A DNA stretch of 59,114 bases, taken from the IMG/VR virus record IMGVR_UViG_3300042863_001365, positions 1 through 59,114 of that record. The stretch is one strand, 5' to 3'. The notes under the pieces are model-generated. The model ran no database searches. It saw only the letters and a list, made by a program, of their open reading frames with translations, and was not told the DNA's origin. Of this stretch, positions 8,645-28,015 are shown piece by piece (within the stretch, counting starts at the first letter, position 1; every line of letters begins with the position of its first letter). The translations under genes and the position numbers were made by a program. This DNA is from a virus. Taxonomy: Duplodnaviria > Caudoviricetes.

Positions 8645-8983
8645 TCAGAGATATTCGGGGCCAGTCCAGCGAACCCATGAAAAATCTTGATCAATGATAT
8701 TGCCACGGGCTTTATTTTTCGCAGGTGCGGCGAACGATGCAGCCTTGAGGATGTCGCCACGTTTGAATTTATCATCGGTATCTTTGACGATGAATCCCCA
8801 GACAGAGTTTTCCCGAATAATTTTGATATATTTTTTGCCATCGGTGTATGACAATGAATTATTAAATTCACTGATCATCTTGCGATTAACTTCGCTCAAA
8901 TCGGATTCATTCCGACCCAGCAGAGTCATTGCATAATAATCAGCACGGATTTTGTCCAACAGTGTATTGAGTTCGGTTTCCAT
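8645..8983 (-). CDS. Conserved phage hypothetical protein; paralog of 21288..21686
   Basis: KKYIKII...WGFIV...FKRGDILKAA...ARGNI; GGAG-CGAATC-ATG leader. Confidence 0.75.
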   Translation of the reverse strand: METELNTLLDKIRADYYAMTLLGRNESDLSEVNRKMISEFNNSLSYTDGKKYIKIIRENSVWGFIVKDTDDKFKRGDILKAASFAAPAKNKARGNIIDQDFSWVRWTGPEYL

Positions 8984-9056
8984 GATTCGCTCCATTGTGT
9001 TTCAACTTGACCGACATTTATGCAGTATAATGGGGGCTGTCAACCCCCCATCTTGA

Positions 9057-9313: not shown

Positions 9314-9580
9314 TCAGAGATTGTAAGCGATTGCAGATTGTTCCGAGTAGTCTTCCTCATAGCTTGCCGAACCATCTGCACCAAGTGTCAGTACAGGTTC
9401 AACCCAATTAGTGCGGCGATCAAGATAAGAAACCTTGATCGTATCGTATCCGCCAAAGCCGCAGCGAACATATTGCATTGCCCAACGAATAGCCTCATTC
9501 TGCGATTCGCTAGAAAACAATGCAATATCATCGCCAAGTGATTTAGTATTAGTCACACCCCACACAGTAAACATTGTCAT
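9314..9580 (-). CDS. Hypothetical protein
   Basis: GGAG-CGAATC-ATG leader. Confidence 0.65.
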   Translation of the reverse strand: MTMFTVWGVTNTKSLGDDIALFSSESQNEAIRWAMQYVRCGFGGYDTIKVSYLDRRTNWVEPVLTLGADGSASYEEDYSEQSAIAYNL

Positions 9581-9635
9581 GATTCGCTCCATTGTGATCC
9601 GTTGCACTAATCATTAAAGTTTTCACAACACACTG

Positions 9636-9887
9636 TCAACCCCCTGTCAACAAAAATTCTTTTATTGATACCTCATAACTAGCAGAATCATATGACAATG
9701 TTAACTTAAACTCTATCAGATTAGTATCATTACCTAATACCATACATTCTCCCAGATGAATAAAACCACAGCGAGTTAGAGTAGGTGCTATATTATTACG
9801 CCATAATGACATTGACATTATATAATAAACTGGAAGATATGGTGCCGTTGCACCCTTTAGCATTACACCTATAACATAATGGGTCAT
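9636..9887 (-). CDS. Mini-protein family A member
   Basis: C-terminal GNDTNLIEFKLT. Confidence 0.6.
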   Translation of the reverse strand: MTHYVIGVMLKGATAPYLPVYYIMSMSLWRNNIAPTLTRCGFIHLGECMVLGNDTNLIEFKLTLSYDSASYEVSIKEFLLTGG

Positions 9888-10105
9888 TTTATCTCAACAA
9901 ATCTAACATTCAGGTGTTGCGTATAAGTTAATAGAAATTCTGCTAATATATCATCGCTACCATAATAGTAATCAAAATATGGGTGATCATTATATCCACC
10001 ACAATTAATCCAATGTTGTGATATATGATCTAAAAATAATGGACCCATATCTAATCGAATAAAACTATATTTTTTACTATATTGTTGTCTGATATGGCGT
10101 TTCAT
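9884..10105 (-). CDS. Mini-protein family A member
   Basis: HWINCGG...GSDDILAEFLLTY. Confidence 0.65.
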   Translation of the reverse strand: MKRHIRQQYSKKYSFIRLDMGPLFLDHISQHWINCGGYNDHPYFDYYYGSDDILAEFLLTYTQHLNVRFVEIK

Positions 10106-10451: not shown

Positions 10452-10658
10452 TCAGATTGTCAAATAAGGATGACCAATATCCAGAACATCGGTTTCATCC
10501 GCTTCACACATCGGATAAAGCATATCATTGGCATCAGGATCAACCAACGAATAAAATTCTGCAACACCCGACACATAAATTGTTACATCGCAATTCTTTT
10601 GCCTGTCAGACATAGTTGCAATGAACTTTTCCAAGTCACGATACGTTACGTTAGCCAT
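10452..10658 (-). CDS. Small hypothetical protein
   Basis: GGAG-CGAATC-ATG leader. Confidence 0.65.
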   Translation of the reverse strand: MANVTYRDLEKFIATMSDRQKNCDVTIYVSGVAEFYSLVDPDANDMLYPMCEADETDVLDIGHPYLTI

Positions 10659-10904
10659 GATTCGCTCCTATGATCATCACTAAGTGGAATCTATCATATC
10701 ATGTGTTACTGTCAAGATGTCTTGTCAAAAATTCTCTATCCATATGATGAACATTATGATACTAGAATCATGATGATACTTGATTTCGTGTTACTCAATC
10801 AAGTATTGATATTAGATAATATACTTCGGAATAAATCCTCAGTATATTATCAATATCTATTTTTTAAGATTCTAATACTCTATCTTCTTTTAACATCATT
10901 ACAG

Positions 10905-11300
10905 AGGAAGACATACTTAGCCCGCTAAGGCCAAGTATATCCCCCAACTATAATAATAAATTATTACGTCGTGTGACACCTAATACAGATCAACCTTGTA
11001 ATGTCAGGTTAGGGCGGTCATGCTGTACCCCTTTATGATCTACTTTTTGACGCAAGCGTAATATACCGTATTAGGAAGCATATAACACTTTGTTGGTTGC
11101 AACTTGTGAACAGAGCCAACTCATTTTGTAGGTTAGTCAATCCCACTACTAAACTAACTTTTAATAAATTAAAAGCGTAGCACAACAACTTCCATCCACC
11201 ATAGCAATTCAATGTATCTGTAGATTCGTCGCGGATATATTCCTATATCATATCGCTACTATGCAGTAAACTTATGACAGCCCAATGATTCGAAATCATT
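10905..11300. ncRNA. Candidate large structured non-coding RNA
   Basis: ORF-free and GC-richer than flanks, with about 8 visible stems including nested CCTAATAC/GTATTAGG and AGATCA/TGATCT; strand not established. Confidence 0.5.
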
Positions 11301-11378
11301 CTCCTGACTCAATCAGTATGACATAAAATATACCCAAAATCAAGTGAAAAAATAATCAAAAATAATCCAATCTTTTTG

Positions 11379-11448
11379 TAACCCATTGATTTCATTATAT
11401 AATTTATTTTAGAAATAATAAAAATTATTGTTTAGAATCAATGAGTTA
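11379..11448. promoter_or_regulatory. Inverted pair of IHF-consensus sites around an AT-rich spacer (candidate origin element)
   Basis: AATCAATGGGTTA (minus, 11379-11391) and AATCAATGAGTTA (plus, 11436-11448) both match WATCAANNNNTTR. Confidence 0.55.
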
Positions 11449-11554
11449 CAAGGTTTTTATTAAAATGTATGAATCTTACTGTGTATATACCCATCAAAAT
11501 GAGCAAAAATGTTAAAAAATGAAAATTCGCAATATTTTGGCATAATTTATCCAC

Positions 11555-11582
11555 TTGACAGCATAATGCGAATCAGTATAGA
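11555..11582 (+). promoter_or_regulatory. Sigma70-type promoter with CGAATCA in the spacer; no sizeable downstream ORF
   Basis: TTGACAGCATAATGCGAATCAGTATAGA. Confidence 0.55.
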
Positions 11583-11740
11583 GTTATGATAGAAACCGCA
11601 CAGATGATCATCGACGCGATAGGAGCATGGCTTCGGGGGAATCTGTCCAAAAAATAAAATAAAGAATAGAATTCCCCATCACCTCAATACACTATCGAAT
11701 CATAGTGTGTCAAGCAGAATAATAAAAATAGTATGCTGCC

Positions 11741-11992
11741 CTATTGGGCAACACACTCACCCGACATTTTTGTATCACTATACAATTCATTCACTTTATC
11801 ATCAGTCAGATCAATCCATGCCACCTTGTTTTTGAAATATGTTTTCGTATATGTTTTATCATTTTCCAAATCAACTACAATCGCCATATAATAATCATTG
11901 TAAATGTAAAGACCCATTGACTTAGATGCATCGCCATCATGATAAAACATATAAACCATATTCGGAAAAATTGTCACTGACTTGATCTGCAT
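11741..11992 (-). CDS. Hypothetical protein
   Basis: Start moved to MQIKSV after the GGAG-CGAATC leader. Confidence 0.65.
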   Translation of the reverse strand: MQIKSVTIFPNMVYMFYHDGDASKSMGLYIYNDYYMAIVVDLENDKTYTKTYFKNKVAWIDLTDDKVNELYSDTKMSGECVAQ

Positions 11993-12098
11993 GATTCGCT
12001 CCATTGTGTCTAGCCTGTTACCCTTATAGTCAAAAGATTCTACCATGTAAACCCCCAAAATGAGTGGAAGCCCCCGTAGGGGCTTCCATAGTGTGATA

Positions 12099-12824
12099 TC
12101 AGTATGCGGCAATCTGCCTTGCACCTTGCGAAGTTTCTGCACGGGAAAGTGAAACCTTGCTGCCTGCATTTTGACCAGCACGATATGCCGAACCATCGTT
12201 GATCACAATTTTCGTCGCCGTTCCCTTTTTAAGATGAATATTCACTTGACGCTGATATTCTTCCGTAACCATCTGATTCTTCAAGATAATCAGCGATGTG
12301 CCGCCACTTGCACGAGTCTCGCTTTTAAGATCACGCAAACGCTGATTGATACGATTTGCCATGCCAACCATAAAAGATTTGCGAATAGTCCGCTTATGGC
12401 CCACATCAGTCAACGAATTGGAATAAACAGCCCATTCCCATTCCATCGCACGAAACAAAACTTCACGAATAAACTTTGCCGTTTCAACATCGGCGGCATA
12501 TCCAAAGAAATTGATATTCACGCCCGTCTTGATCGAACCAGCATACTCTTTATTCTGCCACACTTTGACGCCGCAAAATTCTGCAACAGTGGCGATGCAA
12601 TACAAATCAGCTTCATGCAGATTCTTGCGACCATCACGCACAACTTCACGCAAGAAATCTTTGGCTGCAGCGGTGTTTGCCAGAATGTCGGCTTCAGTAA
12701 CACCATGTTCATCCATCAGCTTTTGAGCAATACGCAATGCTGCCATTGCTTCCGCTTCAGTAGCACCGTTGGAAGTCTTTTTGTTCAACAATGCTGCAAT
12801 CTTGGCCTTGATAGCTTCCGACAT
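12099..12824 (-). CDS. DUF2786-like protein
   Basis: N-terminal KIAALL...ATEAEAMAALRIAQKLMDEHG; RKSFMVG and AYRAG..AG downstream; GGAG RBS. Confidence 0.75.
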   Translation of the reverse strand: MSEAIKAKIAALLNKKTSNGATEAEAMAALRIAQKLMDEHGVTEADILANTAAAKDFLREVVRDGRKNLHEADLYCIATVAEFCGVKVWQNKEYAGSIKTGVNINFFGYAADVETAKFIREVLFRAMEWEWAVYSNSLTDVGHKRTIRKSFMVGMANRINQRLRDLKSETRASGGTSLIILKNQMVTEEYQRQVNIHLKKGTATKIVINDGSAYRAGQNAGSKVSLSRAETSQGARQIAAY

Positions 12825-13117: not shown

Positions 13118-13187
13118 TATAAATAAGGGTTGTCAATCGCGGACCCGCATCCCATTGACTCTATATTTGTAAGGAAATACAGCAATG
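13118..13187 (+). promoter_or_regulatory. Late promoter TATAAATA plus structured leader of the GIY-YIG gene
   Basis: TATAAATA 13118-13125; GTCAAT-CGC-GGA-loop-TCC-C-ATTGAC-TCTAT...AAGGA...ACAGCA-ATG; same architecture at 55763..55836. Confidence 0.7.
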
Positions 13188-13673
13188 AATATTTATTATG
13201 ATACTACTCCATATTTTTATGTCATAGAAGATGTAAGAAATGGTAAAAAGTATGCAGGAAGTAGATGGAGAAAAGGATGCCATCCTTCTGAATTATTAAG
13301 AGAGAAAAATGGATACTATACATCATCTAAAGAAGTTAATAAAATTATCAAAGAACACGGATTACTCGTCTTTAGAATAGTTAAAATAAAAGAATGCAAA
13401 AACAAAGATGCGGTTTATGCATATGAAACTGATTATCTTACAGAAAAAGATGCCGCTACTAATAATCTCTATTACAACAAACATAATAACGATTACTCAA
13501 CGTTGCAATATAAGGGGAACCGTAAAGTTGTAAACGATATAAACAAGTATAAAGACCACTTTAACCTAAAACTTAATAAGTTCGGATTAAAAGGCGGATG
13601 GTGGCAAAAGACTGATGAAGATTTATTATATGTATTAGAACGTATTATACTTGCATTCGGTGAAATCAAATGA
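13185..13673 (+). CDS. GIY-YIG-like free-standing (homing) endonuclease
   Basis: YFYVI...KKYAGSR...YYTSS...YE-DYL...YYNK pattern of Seg-like nucleases; oriented opposite to its neighbours. Confidence 0.7.
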   Translation: MNIYYDTTPYFYVIEDVRNGKKYAGSRWRKGCHPSELLREKNGYYTSSKEVNKIIKEHGLLVFRIVKIKECKNKDAVYAYETDYLTEKDAATNNLYYNKHNNDYSTLQYKGNRKVVNDINKYKDHFNLKLNKFGLKGGWWQKTDEDLLYVLERIILAFGEIK

Positions 13674-14178: not shown

Positions 14179-14424
14179 TTAACGAGGTATTTGTTCACTG
14201 AATTCTATTATATTATAATTGGGTTGTGTAAGTTTGAATTGTGTTAATATGTAATCATTTCCCTGCCATATAAATGGATACGGTTGATTCATAAATGAAA
14301 GACTTATATCTCCACCACAATTAATCCAGTGTTTTGCCATAGTATCATACATATCTCTATAGTGGTGTCTTGATAGTTGATATGTATGAAAACTTACATA
14401 ATATGTTTTTAATTTATTATTCAT
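14179..14424 (-). CDS. Mini-protein family A member
   Basis: HWINCGG...GNDYILTQFKLT. Confidence 0.7.
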   Translation of the reverse strand: MNNKLKTYYVSFHTYQLSRHHYRDMYDTMAKHWINCGGDISLSFMNQPYPFIWQGNDYILTQFKLTQPNYNIIEFSEQIPR

Positions 14425-14660
14425 TGTATTATTTCTTTAATGGTTAAGCAATATGAGTATTGATAAGTTAATATAAACTCTGTCATGATTTCATTTGATC
14501 CGGCAAGATACAGTCCATGTGTTTCTGGTATTATTCCGCCTAGTTCTTTCCAATAGTCTATTATATGATCTTCTTGTGCCCATGATTTAATATATGTAAA
14601 ATTATTTTTTATATCTGGTAAGAAGTCTTGTATTATTGTTACATAATATATTTTGTTCAT
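14421..14660 (-). CDS. Mini-protein family A member
   Basis: YWKELGG...GSNEIMTEFILTY. Confidence 0.7.
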   Translation of the reverse strand: MNKIYYVTIIQDFLPDIKNNFTYIKSWAQEDHIIDYWKELGGIIPETHGLYLAGSNEIMTEFILTYQYSYCLTIKEIIQ

Positions 14661-14884
14661 TATGTGATTTCTTTAATATTAACATATTGTGCGTAAGTGT
14701 ATGTTAGCATAAACTCTATTAGGATTTCATCACTTCCGTATATATAATGGAATGCGTTATCATATATTCCACCCAATGATTCCCAATGTTCGACTGCATG
14801 ATAGTATGGTTTATATTGATTACGATAATTTATCTGCATTGGCAGGAAGAATTTTGTTGTTATGAGTTCATATGTTTTATTCAT
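14660..14884 (-). CDS. Mini-protein family A member
   Basis: HWESLGG...GSDEILIEFMLTY. Confidence 0.7.
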   Translation of the reverse strand: MNKTYELITTKFFLPMQINYRNQYKPYYHAVEHWESLGGIYDNAFHYIYGSDEILIEFMLTYTYAQYVNIKEIT

Positions 14885-15098
14885 TTACTTCACTTATTGA
14901 CAGATGTGGTGATATTGGGTATATTAATAAAAATTCCATTAGTATATCATCGGTTCCATATAAGTGTGAGCAATCGTTGTTTTCTCTAATACCTCCTAAG
15001 TGTTCCCAACATATTTGTATTGTGATCATATCTGATACTAGTTCGAGGTAATCTATTATTGGTAAATATTTATTTCGATAAATTTTATATTTTTTCAT
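14877..15098 (-). CDS. Mini-protein family A member
   Basis: CWEHLGG...GTDDILMEFLLIY; start MKKY overlaps the upstream stop (TAATG). Confidence 0.7.
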   Translation of the reverse strand: MKKYKIYRNKYLPIIDYLELVSDMITIQICWEHLGGIRENNDCSHLYGTDDILMEFLLIYPISPHLSISEVNE

Positions 15099-15265
15099 TA
15101 TTCCCACACGGTTTTATTAACATTGGGCCATTTGTTTTTGATACGGGTCATATTATCATCATACCAAGTAGTATCACGATTAAGTTTTTGGATGAGTTCT
15201 TTCATTTTTTTAGTATTATGGTAGCTTTGGATATCATATTTCCAAGCGGTCATTTTCATATCCAT
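15098..15265 (-). CDS. Small hypothetical protein (55 aa)
   Basis: Translated by hand (MDMKMTAWKY...VWE); stop coupled to the next start. Confidence 0.45.
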   Translation of the reverse strand: MDMKMTAWKYDIQSYHNTKKMKELIQKLNRDTTWYDDNMTRIKNKWPNVNKTVWE

Positions 15266-20449: not shown

Positions 20450-20754
20450 TGAGTAGTAAATTTATTATCAAAGAATATAGTATTGTTCTTTATCCTAAGA
20501 CTAATAACTTTAATAATATAAAAAATGCAGTTGATTATAGTAAATTTTTGTTAGAGCGTGAACTGTATATTATTGATTTGCGTAGTGTATTGTGTGAATG
20601 CGGATTTGAGCATATATCAACTACGCTGAGTGATTTATATTATCGTGGCACCGATAGTGCGGTTGCACTATTTTGGTTAACTTATAGTAGTCCGTTATTA
20701 GATCACATGGAAATACAGTTTGAATCATTCTTGCGTAGCTATAATGTAAAATAA
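20446..20754 (+). CDS. Mini-protein family A member (divergent)
   Basis: CGF...GTDSAVALFWLTY. Confidence 0.55.
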   Translation: MMSSKFIIKEYSIVLYPKTNNFNNIKNAVDYSKFLLERELYIIDLRSVLCECGFEHISTTLSDLYYRGTDSAVALFWLTYSSPLLDHMEIQFESFLRSYNVK

Positions 20755-20784
20755 AAAAGGGGGAAATTAATCCCCCTTTCTTTT
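20753..20784. terminator. Bidirectional intrinsic terminator between convergent genes
   Basis: AAAAAAGGGGGA-AATTAA-TCCCCCTTTCTTTT. Confidence 0.75.
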
Positions 20785-21242
20785 TATCCATAGATTGCTT
20801 GTTTCCAACGTTGGGCACCACGCCATTGTTCTTTTGGAATGGTGTCGATGATTTTATCAACGATTGGATCAAGTTCTTGTTTCATGTATTGGCGGCGGCA
20901 TTCGCTGTTATTCATCATGGCAATACGATCAGGAGTCAGATTTGCCACATAATCTTTATCATTTTGTGTTTCACAACTCCACACAAATTTGTCGGTGCGA
21001 TGAGCATAGTCGGTTTTGTTGACATAAAAATCTGCCCCAACAGGCATACAATGATGCTGCGAATGTGGGCTAACAATAAATGCAACCATCCGCCACACAT
21101 ATGCAGCAGGACCATCAGCAGGCTTGCTAGCACGAAGTCGGTTCACGCCGCCACGTTTTGCGACGACTTTTGAAACAATGTCCATATCGTTGACCGACAA
21201 GACTGTTTTCAAGATTTCAAGGTTGACAGCAGGCATTTCCAT
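20784..21242 (-). CDS. Hypothetical protein, paralog of 6951..7454
   Basis: KPADGPAAYVWRMV...YAHRTDK...ELDPIVDKI; GANTC-containing promoter upstream. Confidence 0.75.
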   Translation of the reverse strand: MEMPAVNLEILKTVLSVNDMDIVSKVVAKRGGVNRLRASKPADGPAAYVWRMVAFIVSPHSQHHCMPVGADFYVNKTDYAHRTDKFVWSCETQNDKDYVANLTPDRIAMMNNSECRRQYMKQELDPIVDKIIDTIPKEQWRGAQRWKQAIYG

Positions 21243-27818: not shown

Positions 27819-27895
27819 TGGTAGACCCTTTCGGACTCGAACCGAAATATTCAATCTTATGAGGATTGTTCATTCACCAGTTATGATAAAGGTCC
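27819..27895 (-). tRNA. tRNA with CAT anticodon (probably Ile2/lysidine type, otherwise Met)
   Basis: GGACCTT acceptor strand; CAATC-CTCATAA-GATTG anticodon arm; GGTTCGAGTCC T-arm; encoded CCA; C4-G69 and C5-G68 as in TilS substrates. Confidence 0.9.
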
Positions 27896-27921
27896 ACTAA
27901 TAATAACGGTATTAAGAGAAT

Positions 27922-28015
27922 TGGTAGGGATGGTGGGATTCGAACCCACAATGTGATCATTAATCAGTGAGGCATTTTAAGTGCCTTGCGTTTCAACCAG
28001 TTTCGCCACATCCCC
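27922..28015 (-). tRNA. tRNA-Leu(TAA)
   Basis: GGGGATG acceptor strand; AGGCA-CTTAAAA-TGCCT arm; long variable arm; GGTTCGAATCC; encoded CCA. Confidence 0.93.

Follow-up and report, generated by a model that had tools for sequence, protein, structure and literature searches.

A conserved, structured RNA, probably a stand-alone gene, in uncultured T4-like jumbo phages

GOLLD and ROOL are large ornate RNAs, often borne by phages or prophages, that frequently adjoin tRNA genes and assemble into homo-oligomeric cages; lake metagenomes provided the first sighting of GOLLD. Large structured RNAs whose function is unknown fall into only a few known classes, and such classes have repeatedly led to new biochemistry. 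Here, we describe a locus in a stretch of 59,114 nucleotides (nt) from an uncultured virus of the Caudoviricetes (IMG/VR record IMGVR_UViG_3300042863_001365, positions 1 to 59,114), which is referred to below as the window. This locus very probably is a conserved, structured, stand-alone RNA gene of ~400 nt on the minus strand, from ~11308 to ~10900. The original prediction, made from the sequence alone, had placed a large ornate noncoding RNA at 10905 to 11300, close to the probable minus-strand interval given above. Homologs with abundant compensatory changes support the prediction of such an RNA, which has two pseudoknots beyond the pairings first listed and is one of a multicopy family in related jumbo phages. 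Its assignment to no known family also agrees with the search using the 4,227 covariance models of Rfam 15 (including GOLLD, ROOL, group I/II introns, RNase P, tmRNA, HEARO, and riboswitches), in which no family match was obtained at an E value of ≤10. At the gathering score, the whole window matched only two tRNAs. At an E value of ≤10, the region 10600 to 11750 gave only six chance-level microRNA and small nucleolar RNA matches far below gathering, and four homolog loci gave three matches, none of them at the RNA.

Conserved core and fold

A core of 150 nt (10976 to 11125, minus strand) is shared by 12 distinct sequences of T4-like jumbo phages, all uncultured: the window, the metagenome contigs L098 and L096, four places in a 318-kb relative (G001) whose terminase is 74% identical to that of the window, and one place each in G013, G021, G022, G027, and G034. 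The blast comparison with G001 gave a 62-nt match to the GC-rich core inside another gap free of open reading frames (ORFs), and pattern scans from the core added the viral contig L094 (G034), whose RNA is identical in two metagenome contigs. L098 showed ~80% identity to the window over 10820 to 11370, and L096 showed 84% identity to a G001 copy. Measured between the GAG box and the far end of the 3' hairpin, the first five sequences span 213, 213, 214, 213, and 222 nt. The covariance model R1, which describes the 150-nt core with 154 positions and 30 pairs, added three further G001 copies (120356, 251844, and 315041) and one copy in each of four other related records. A second model, R2, was built from all 12 sequences (the core models have 152 to 154 positions) and returned the same nine places as R1 over 50 related records, with none further. 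The scores of the window core were 149.3 bits for R1 and 135.7 bits for R2 (model positions 1 to 152), a match by construction since the window is among the seed sequences, and the independent members scored 57 to 93 bits with R1.

The fold is described in the RNA sense, which is the minus strand of the window. The core starts with AAUGAG. Helix H1 pairs 11116-11120 with 11092-11096 (5 bp, with an inner 2-bp helix), and an A-rich linker joins it to the H2 hairpin (11077-11090 with 11054-11067). The loop of H2 carries the 5' arm of the long-range helix H3 (8 bp, 11068-11075 with 10979-10986), forming pseudoknot 1. H4 (11036-11041 with 10987-10992), on which H3 stacks, is contiguous with H3 on the 3' side and closes a three-way junction with the hairpins H5 (11027-11031 with 11011-11015) and H6 (11006-11009 with 10993-10996). 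The 11-nt loop of H5 reads A..GC...ACC. In pseudoknot 2 (PK2, 11017 to 11051), four to five bases after an invariant UGC (11054-11052) pair with the 3' part of this loop, GUCAA (11051-11047) with AUGAC (11021-11017, loop positions 6 to 10). Across the 12 sequences, 23 of the 152 consensus positions are identical in all, and these are mostly unpaired. The window has the full-length core with H1 and H3 to H6, four of five paired PK2 cells, and 12 spanning pairs in H2. The RNA is a member of a hitherto undescribed family in uncultured T4-like jumbo phages from lakes and other waters.

More variable parts flank the core. The 5' domain (11126 to 11308) contains four hairpins, at 11284-11300, 11234-11249 (GGAA tetraloop), 11158-11175 (AU-rich), and 11128-11149 (UGAC in the loop), and is ~80% identical to that of L098. 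The GGAA-loop hairpin was found in three of four sequences compared (the window, L098, and one G001 copy) and the UGAC-loop hairpin in all four, with compensatory changes. In the G001 copy at 12287 and in L096, the 5' domain is much shorter, with ~75 nt from promoter to core. On the other side, a variable hairpin (10951 to 10966, UAAUAAU/AUUAUUA, identified by eye) stands between the core and the 3' hairpin; other copies have different hairpins at this position, often around ACGGAAA. The 3' hairpin (10906 to 10945) has 17 bp, including four G·U pairs that the plus strand would turn into A·C mismatches, and a conserved 3' arm, AAGU(A/G)UG. An equivalent hairpin of 17 to 18 bp was detected in at least eight homologs, and all 12 show one when folded. 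Downstream of the RNA, the minus strand has two more hairpins (10815-10851 and 10776-10806), whose position is conserved in L098 and G001. These hairpins are possible terminators, with T-runs that are better on the plus strand.

All pairings listed in the original prediction were present at their places, and each falls in a helix conserved among the homologs. ATACTT/AAGTAT around CTTAG/CTAAG forms the 3' hairpin, TAATAAT/ATTATTA the variable hairpin, and CCTAATAC/GTATTAGG the long-range helix H3. AGATCA/TGATCT corresponds to H4, AACCT/AGGTT to H6, GTTGG/CCAAC to H1, and the GC-rich minus-strand core to H5, while CTTTTAAT/ATTAAAAG, GATATA/TATATC (the GGAA loop in the RNA sense), and AATGATT/AATCATT are hairpins of the 5' domain.

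The modeled helices were then assessed on the 12-sequence alignment. In MAFFT alignments, some rows had the 5' arms of H1 and H3 shifted by one column, and the model-based alignment was therefore used. In this alignment, 90.4% of 355 cells paired, compared with 67.0 ± 1.7% when the 3' letters were shuffled (reached in 0 of 500 shuffles), and pairing was 37 to 45% when the partners were slid by one to three columns. Changes on both sides were present in 25 of the 30 modeled pairs, compared with 16.2 ± 1.8 in shuffles (0 of 500). PK2 is not part of the model and was examined at fixed offsets from invariant anchors: 54 of 60 cells paired, compared with 18 to 27 of 60 when the partner was slid. 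At its variable positions 3 to 5, 32 of 36 cells paired, and none of 10,000 permutations of the partners among the sequences reached that number. H2, likewise not in the model, was examined with the H3 arm kept unpaired; in each of the 12 sequences, a hairpin of 8 to 13 pairs spanned the arm (z scores, -1.6 to -8.7 against shuffled flanks). In a free-search cross-pairing control, the own and mean cross values were 8 and 6.5 of 8 for H3 and 5.6 and 3.8 of 6 for H4.

The cells of the modeled helices comprised 282 Watson-Crick pairs, 39 G·U pairs, 2 A·C mismatches, and 32 other mismatches. Because of the 39 G·U and 2 A·C cells, the opposite strand would lose 39 pairs and gain 2, and the minus strand is therefore the strand of the RNA. 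The minimum free energy of the core with the 3' hairpin had z scores of -1.5 to -4.5 in the RNA sense and was more negative than in the antisense in 11 of 12 sequences; the value for the window was -3.94 (0 of 100 shuffles as good). The comparison of 10905 to 11300 with dinucleotide-shuffled controls, proposed with the prediction, came out in its favor on the minus strand (z score, -2.49; 1 of 100 as good) and failed on the plus strand (z score, -1.00; 18 of 100). The claim that the region holds no ORF was nearly right: the gap contains no convincing gene, and every reading frame is interrupted in some of the 12 homologs, but a 59-amino-acid ORF with a TTG start (11033 to 11212, minus strand) and a 75-amino-acid ORF (10701 to 10928, plus strand) touch it. 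No long frame was opened in the gap under genetic code 4 or with TAG or TAA read as Gln.

Genomic setting, distribution, and transcription signals

The source record is a fragment (59 kb) from an uncultured virus, with a CheckV completeness estimate of 16%, and nearly all of the sequencing runs containing the stretch are lake-water metagenomes. The window encodes T4-type replication and packaging genes. For its large terminase, identity is 54% with the protein of Pseudomonas phage PA5oct and ~50% with the terminases of other jumbo phages. The RNA locus lies inside a 1.08-kb gap (10659 to 11740) that has minus-strand genes on both sides and 29 short inverted-repeat pairs along its whole length. 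G001 holds four diverged copies of the RNA, at 12287-12452, 120356-120522, 251844-252035, and 315041-315208. The copy at 315041 is syntenic with that of the window, yet it is the most diverged (57 bits).

The flanking genes differ between copies of the RNA, which is intergenic in 12 of 12. Six copies (L152 and L154 to L158) represent one orthologous locus, with a convergent baseplate-hub gene downstream and a Rad50/SbcC-like gene and small ORFs upstream. Directly upstream on the same strand is a PDDEXK_15 endonuclease gene in L152, L157, and L158 and a SegE-like GIY-YIG endonuclease gene in L154, L155, and L156. The copies in the window, L098, and the rest of G001 are located elsewhere. In L098, the RNA directly follows a DUF2786/DUF7168 gene, and the same gene is 0.8 kb away in the window. 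The next downstream genes on the L094 contig are convergent. The window itself has a 162-amino-acid ORF (13185 to 13673, plus strand) for a SegE-like GIY-YIG homing endonuclease (Pfam PF19835; E value, 2e-6), 1.9 kb from the RNA. Homing of the T4 seg genes offers a comparison, and the alternating endonuclease genes beside a conserved RNA gene may recall homing next to conserved targets.

Among GenBank phages, blastn with 1,201 nt gave no match, and the 236-nt core at an E value of ≤10 gave only 23 chance matches of ~25 nt. R2 found no copy in the four cultured jumbo phages searched (PA5oct, Phosso, Atu_ph07, and Vibrio phage 2.275.O). When flanking proteins were used as bait in viral contigs, the 241-amino-acid protein gave one distant locus, and the 106- and 87-amino-acid proteins gave no match. 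The exact 21-mer of the core had no match in viral contigs. A degenerate core pattern gave two matches in viral contigs, both true, eight in metagenome contigs (four true and four by chance), and eight in genome contigs, none of them true. Of two looser patterns in viral contigs, one found only the two known loci and the other found 40 loci, 38 of which were unrelated coding sequence. A pattern with up to three mismatches found only the two known places in 32 related records. One freshwater run contained a 995-nt contig that matches only 10983 to 11042, with nine differences, a hint of more distant relatives of the RNA. A separate match in the window at 20656 to 20810 (plus strand; 15 to 17 bits; E value, 0.2 to 0.4 with R1 and R2) was rejected as a GC-stem, T-run terminator between convergent ORFs.

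Sigma-70-like sites in the RNA sense were present 72 to 230 nt upstream of the core in four of five homologs scanned: TTGACG-17-TAGATT in L153 (9/12 to consensus, with TG), TTGACA-17-TATATT in L158 (11/12, without TG), TTGACA-17-TATGTT in L160 (10/12, with TG, just after a terminator-like hairpin), and TTGACT-17-TATATT in L098 (10/12, with TG). No site was listed by the scan of L159. In the window, a putative promoter was identified by eye at 11315 to 11343 (minus strand), with TTGATT (11343-11338), a 17-nt spacer, and TG-n-CATACT (-10 element at 11320-11315); its position is homologous to that of the L098 site, and transcription would start near 11308.

Other conserved noncoding blocks lie in the same gap. 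The block at 11541 to 11668 (plus strand) is 84% identical to G001 316341-316452 and L098 4405-4508, and its position relative to the RNA differs among the window, G001, and L098. It contains a plus-strand promoter-like sequence, TTGACA-18-TAGAGT (11555 to 11584), followed by ~65 nt that are nearly invariant in all three copies, and is possibly a small RNA gene. A 23-amino-acid micro-ORF at 11588 to 11659 was rejected, as its ATG is absent in two of the three copies. The second block (11374 to 11550) is 74% identical to G001 316784-316964 and includes a 36-nt imperfect palindrome (11376 to 11451). It also contains one of the two copies (11328-11363 and 11485-11520) of a 36-nt direct repeat. 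The order of the two blocks is swapped in G001.

Farther away, the minus strand has small paralogous ORFs of 73 to 81 amino acids, four in tandem at 14179 to 15107 and one at 9884 to 10105, with a common W..(C/L)GG ... (I/Y)L.EF.LTY pattern recognized by eye. An ME-R-I-M peptide begins, or precedes in frame, the minus-strand ORFs 8645-8995, 9314-9607, 10452-10658, and 11741-12004, which suggests a shared translation-start region with the second ATG as the true start. Two tRNA genes, for Met (CAT) and Leu (TAA), lie on the minus strand at 27819 to 28015, ~17 kb from the RNA.

Interpretation and rival explanations

The differing flanking genes and the upstream promoter-like sites together indicate a stand-alone RNA rather than a leader, and a stand-alone early transcript is most likely. 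Host RNA polymerase would transcribe the RNA from its own sigma-70-like promoter. The RNA would then act in trans, with the folded molecule perhaps binding a protein or small ligand or catalyzing a reaction, and not as the leader of a neighbor; this step is proposed with less confidence than the transcription. Provided that the locus is such a gene, a protein- or ligand-binding scaffold has an even chance of being the mode of action. A ribozyme is considerably less probable, at about the level of some other mode, and an RNA-only assembly of the GOLLD/ROOL kind is less probable again. The invariant unpaired bases around the two pseudoknots of the modeled fold suggest a binding pocket or an active site, and the retention of several old paralogs by a single genome points to a need for dosage or to a role that has diversified. 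A more far-reaching proposal, possible but rather unlikely, is that the RNA founds a new class of large catalytic or self-assembling jumbo-phage RNA, in which the double-pseudoknot core with its 23 invariant nucleotides would be the active site or ligand pocket and the diverged paralogs, each made early from its own promoter, would act on host or phage nucleic acids, e.g., in processing, repair, or counter-defense.

Several points weigh against a stand-alone RNA gene or reduce the weight of the evidence for it. In the alignment behind the covariation counts, the model fitted the sequences to the structure, which favors pairing, and the 12 sequences represent few clades, so that their cells are not independent events. 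For H2, the free-search cross-pairing control gave no information (own, 7.0; cross, 6.9 of 7). Only 6 of the 50 related records searched with R1 carry the RNA, though most records are small fragments. The promoter of the window is weak, with 8/12 to consensus, and its site was not listed by the promoter scan. The counts of promoter-like sites did not exceed shuffle counts in any region scanned, and the promoter argument therefore rests on position and sense. The terminator scan of the window and five homolog loci found no intrinsic terminator in the RNA sense, and the plus strand has the better T-runs after the downstream hairpins. Of the 20 runs containing the stretch, none is on record as RNA, and expression, ends, and strand are inferred; two runs labeled RNA-Seq, possibly DNA, contain short contigs of a ~97% relative, and contigs cannot show transcripts.

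The endonuclease genes raise the question of a mobile cassette, in which the RNA would be an intron-like or ribozyme remnant traveling along with free-standing homing endonucleases or a conserved target beside a homing site. Such a cassette would explain several copies per genome, as with the four dispersed copies in G001, and it is consistent with the same-strand SegE-like GIY-YIG genes upstream of three copies, the PDDEXK_15 genes upstream of three others, and the SegE-like gene of the window at 13185 to 13673. However, the copies are strongly diverged, like old paralogs (57 to 151 bits with R1) and unlike recent insertions, and the copies in the window, in L098, and at three places in G001 have no directly adjoining endonuclease gene. 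There was also no match to a group I/II intron model and no gene interrupted by the RNA, and, were the RNA no more than a homing target, endonuclease genes next to a conserved gene would be expected just as much. We consider this explanation improbable. Still less probable is a cis-acting leader, riboswitch-like or an attenuator, of the downstream minus-strand ORF of 68 amino acids (10452 to 10658). A pseudoknotted core with invariant unpaired bases is found in aptamers, and in the window the hairpins are followed by a gene on the same strand, as they are in L154, L155, and L157. A leader function is unlikely, however, given that the gene downstream varies among the copies and in some is convergent, as in L152, L156, and L158. 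Moreover, the 68-amino-acid gene has its own promoter-like sequence between gene and RNA (TTGACA-16-TAGATT, 10/12, 10715 to 10688), and there is no U-run terminator after the 3' hairpin. Neither a constant place upstream of one gene class nor an expression platform, as in riboswitches and leaders, was found for the RNA.

The remaining explanations dispense with an RNA. The hairpins could act in DNA, as a single-stranded replication, recombination, or packaging signal in an AT-rich intergenic region beside other conserved noncoding blocks (11374 to 11668), and G·T wobble is also possible in single-stranded DNA. The 39:2 ratio of G·U over A·C, the two pseudoknots, the GNRA-type loop, and the three-way junction are typical of folded RNA, however; promoter-like sites stand upstream in the right sense, and four diverged copies per genome would be unexpected for an origin or packaging site. 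We regard a DNA signal as very improbable. Functionless chance inverted repeats in an AT-rich spacer would fit the plus strand, which folds no better than shuffles (z score, -1.0), and the 29 short inverted-repeat pairs in the gap. This explanation has hardly any probability left and is already contradicted by the conservation of the fold, which persists with compensatory changes in 12 sequences even as the primary sequence diverges.

Comparison with described RNAs

Altogether, for an RNA known from so few sequences, the fold is unusually well supported, with its two pseudoknots, three-way junction, and invariant unpaired bases, and the genomic habit is odd, with up to four old paralogs in one phage genome and homing endonuclease genes beside some. 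The RNA is a defined object for probing, cryo-electron microscopy, and activity assays, and the covariance model can be used in surveys of freshwater and marine viromes. The literature search found no description of this RNA, with the candidate lists of Fremin et al. (2023, PMC10690425) outside the comparison, so that a fragment may be listed there. The candidate structured RNAs of that paper come from the same data source, IMG/VR, and were supported by the same kind of comparative evidence; they are 29 to 151 nt long, whereas the RNA described here has ~400 nt.

Resemblances to hammerhead, twister, hepatitis delta virus-like, glmS, and RNase P RNAs failed on inspection, with no Rfam match for any of them. 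The RNA resembles the omega RNAs of TnpB/IscB and HEARO in that it is structured, has a length of a few hundred nucleotides, and, in 3 of 12 copies, immediately follows a small nuclease gene (PDDEXK_15). In contrast to these RNAs, the nuclease here is of another fold, a GIY-YIG gene takes its place in three copies, and none stands beside six. The RNA also lacks transposon ends and a HEARO match in Rfam and is not tied to one nuclease.

Group I introns are inserted in a host gene, pair with the exons through P1/P10, and have a P3-P7 pseudoknot that encloses P4-P6. The group I introns of T4-like phages, together with the related lariat-capping ribozymes, share with this RNA a pseudoknotted core, a GNRA-type loop, the phage setting, and GIY-YIG genes beside some copies. 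Unlike the introns, the RNA has no Rfam intron match, does not interrupt a gene, and is preceded by a promoter-like site of its own. It is intergenic in 12 of 12 copies, and the order of its strands does not fit P3-P9. Because no more than a few nucleotides separate the 5' arm of H2 from that of H3, there is no equivalent of P4-P6.

This RNA matches neither the GOLLD nor the ROOL model of Rfam even at an E value of ≤10, is smaller (~300 to 410 nt), has several diverged copies per genome, and is not beside tRNA genes, those of the window being ~17 kb away. Like GOLLD and ROOL, it is a stand-alone, multihelix, pseudoknotted RNA of several hundred nucleotides from freshwater phages, with a variable periphery around a conserved core.
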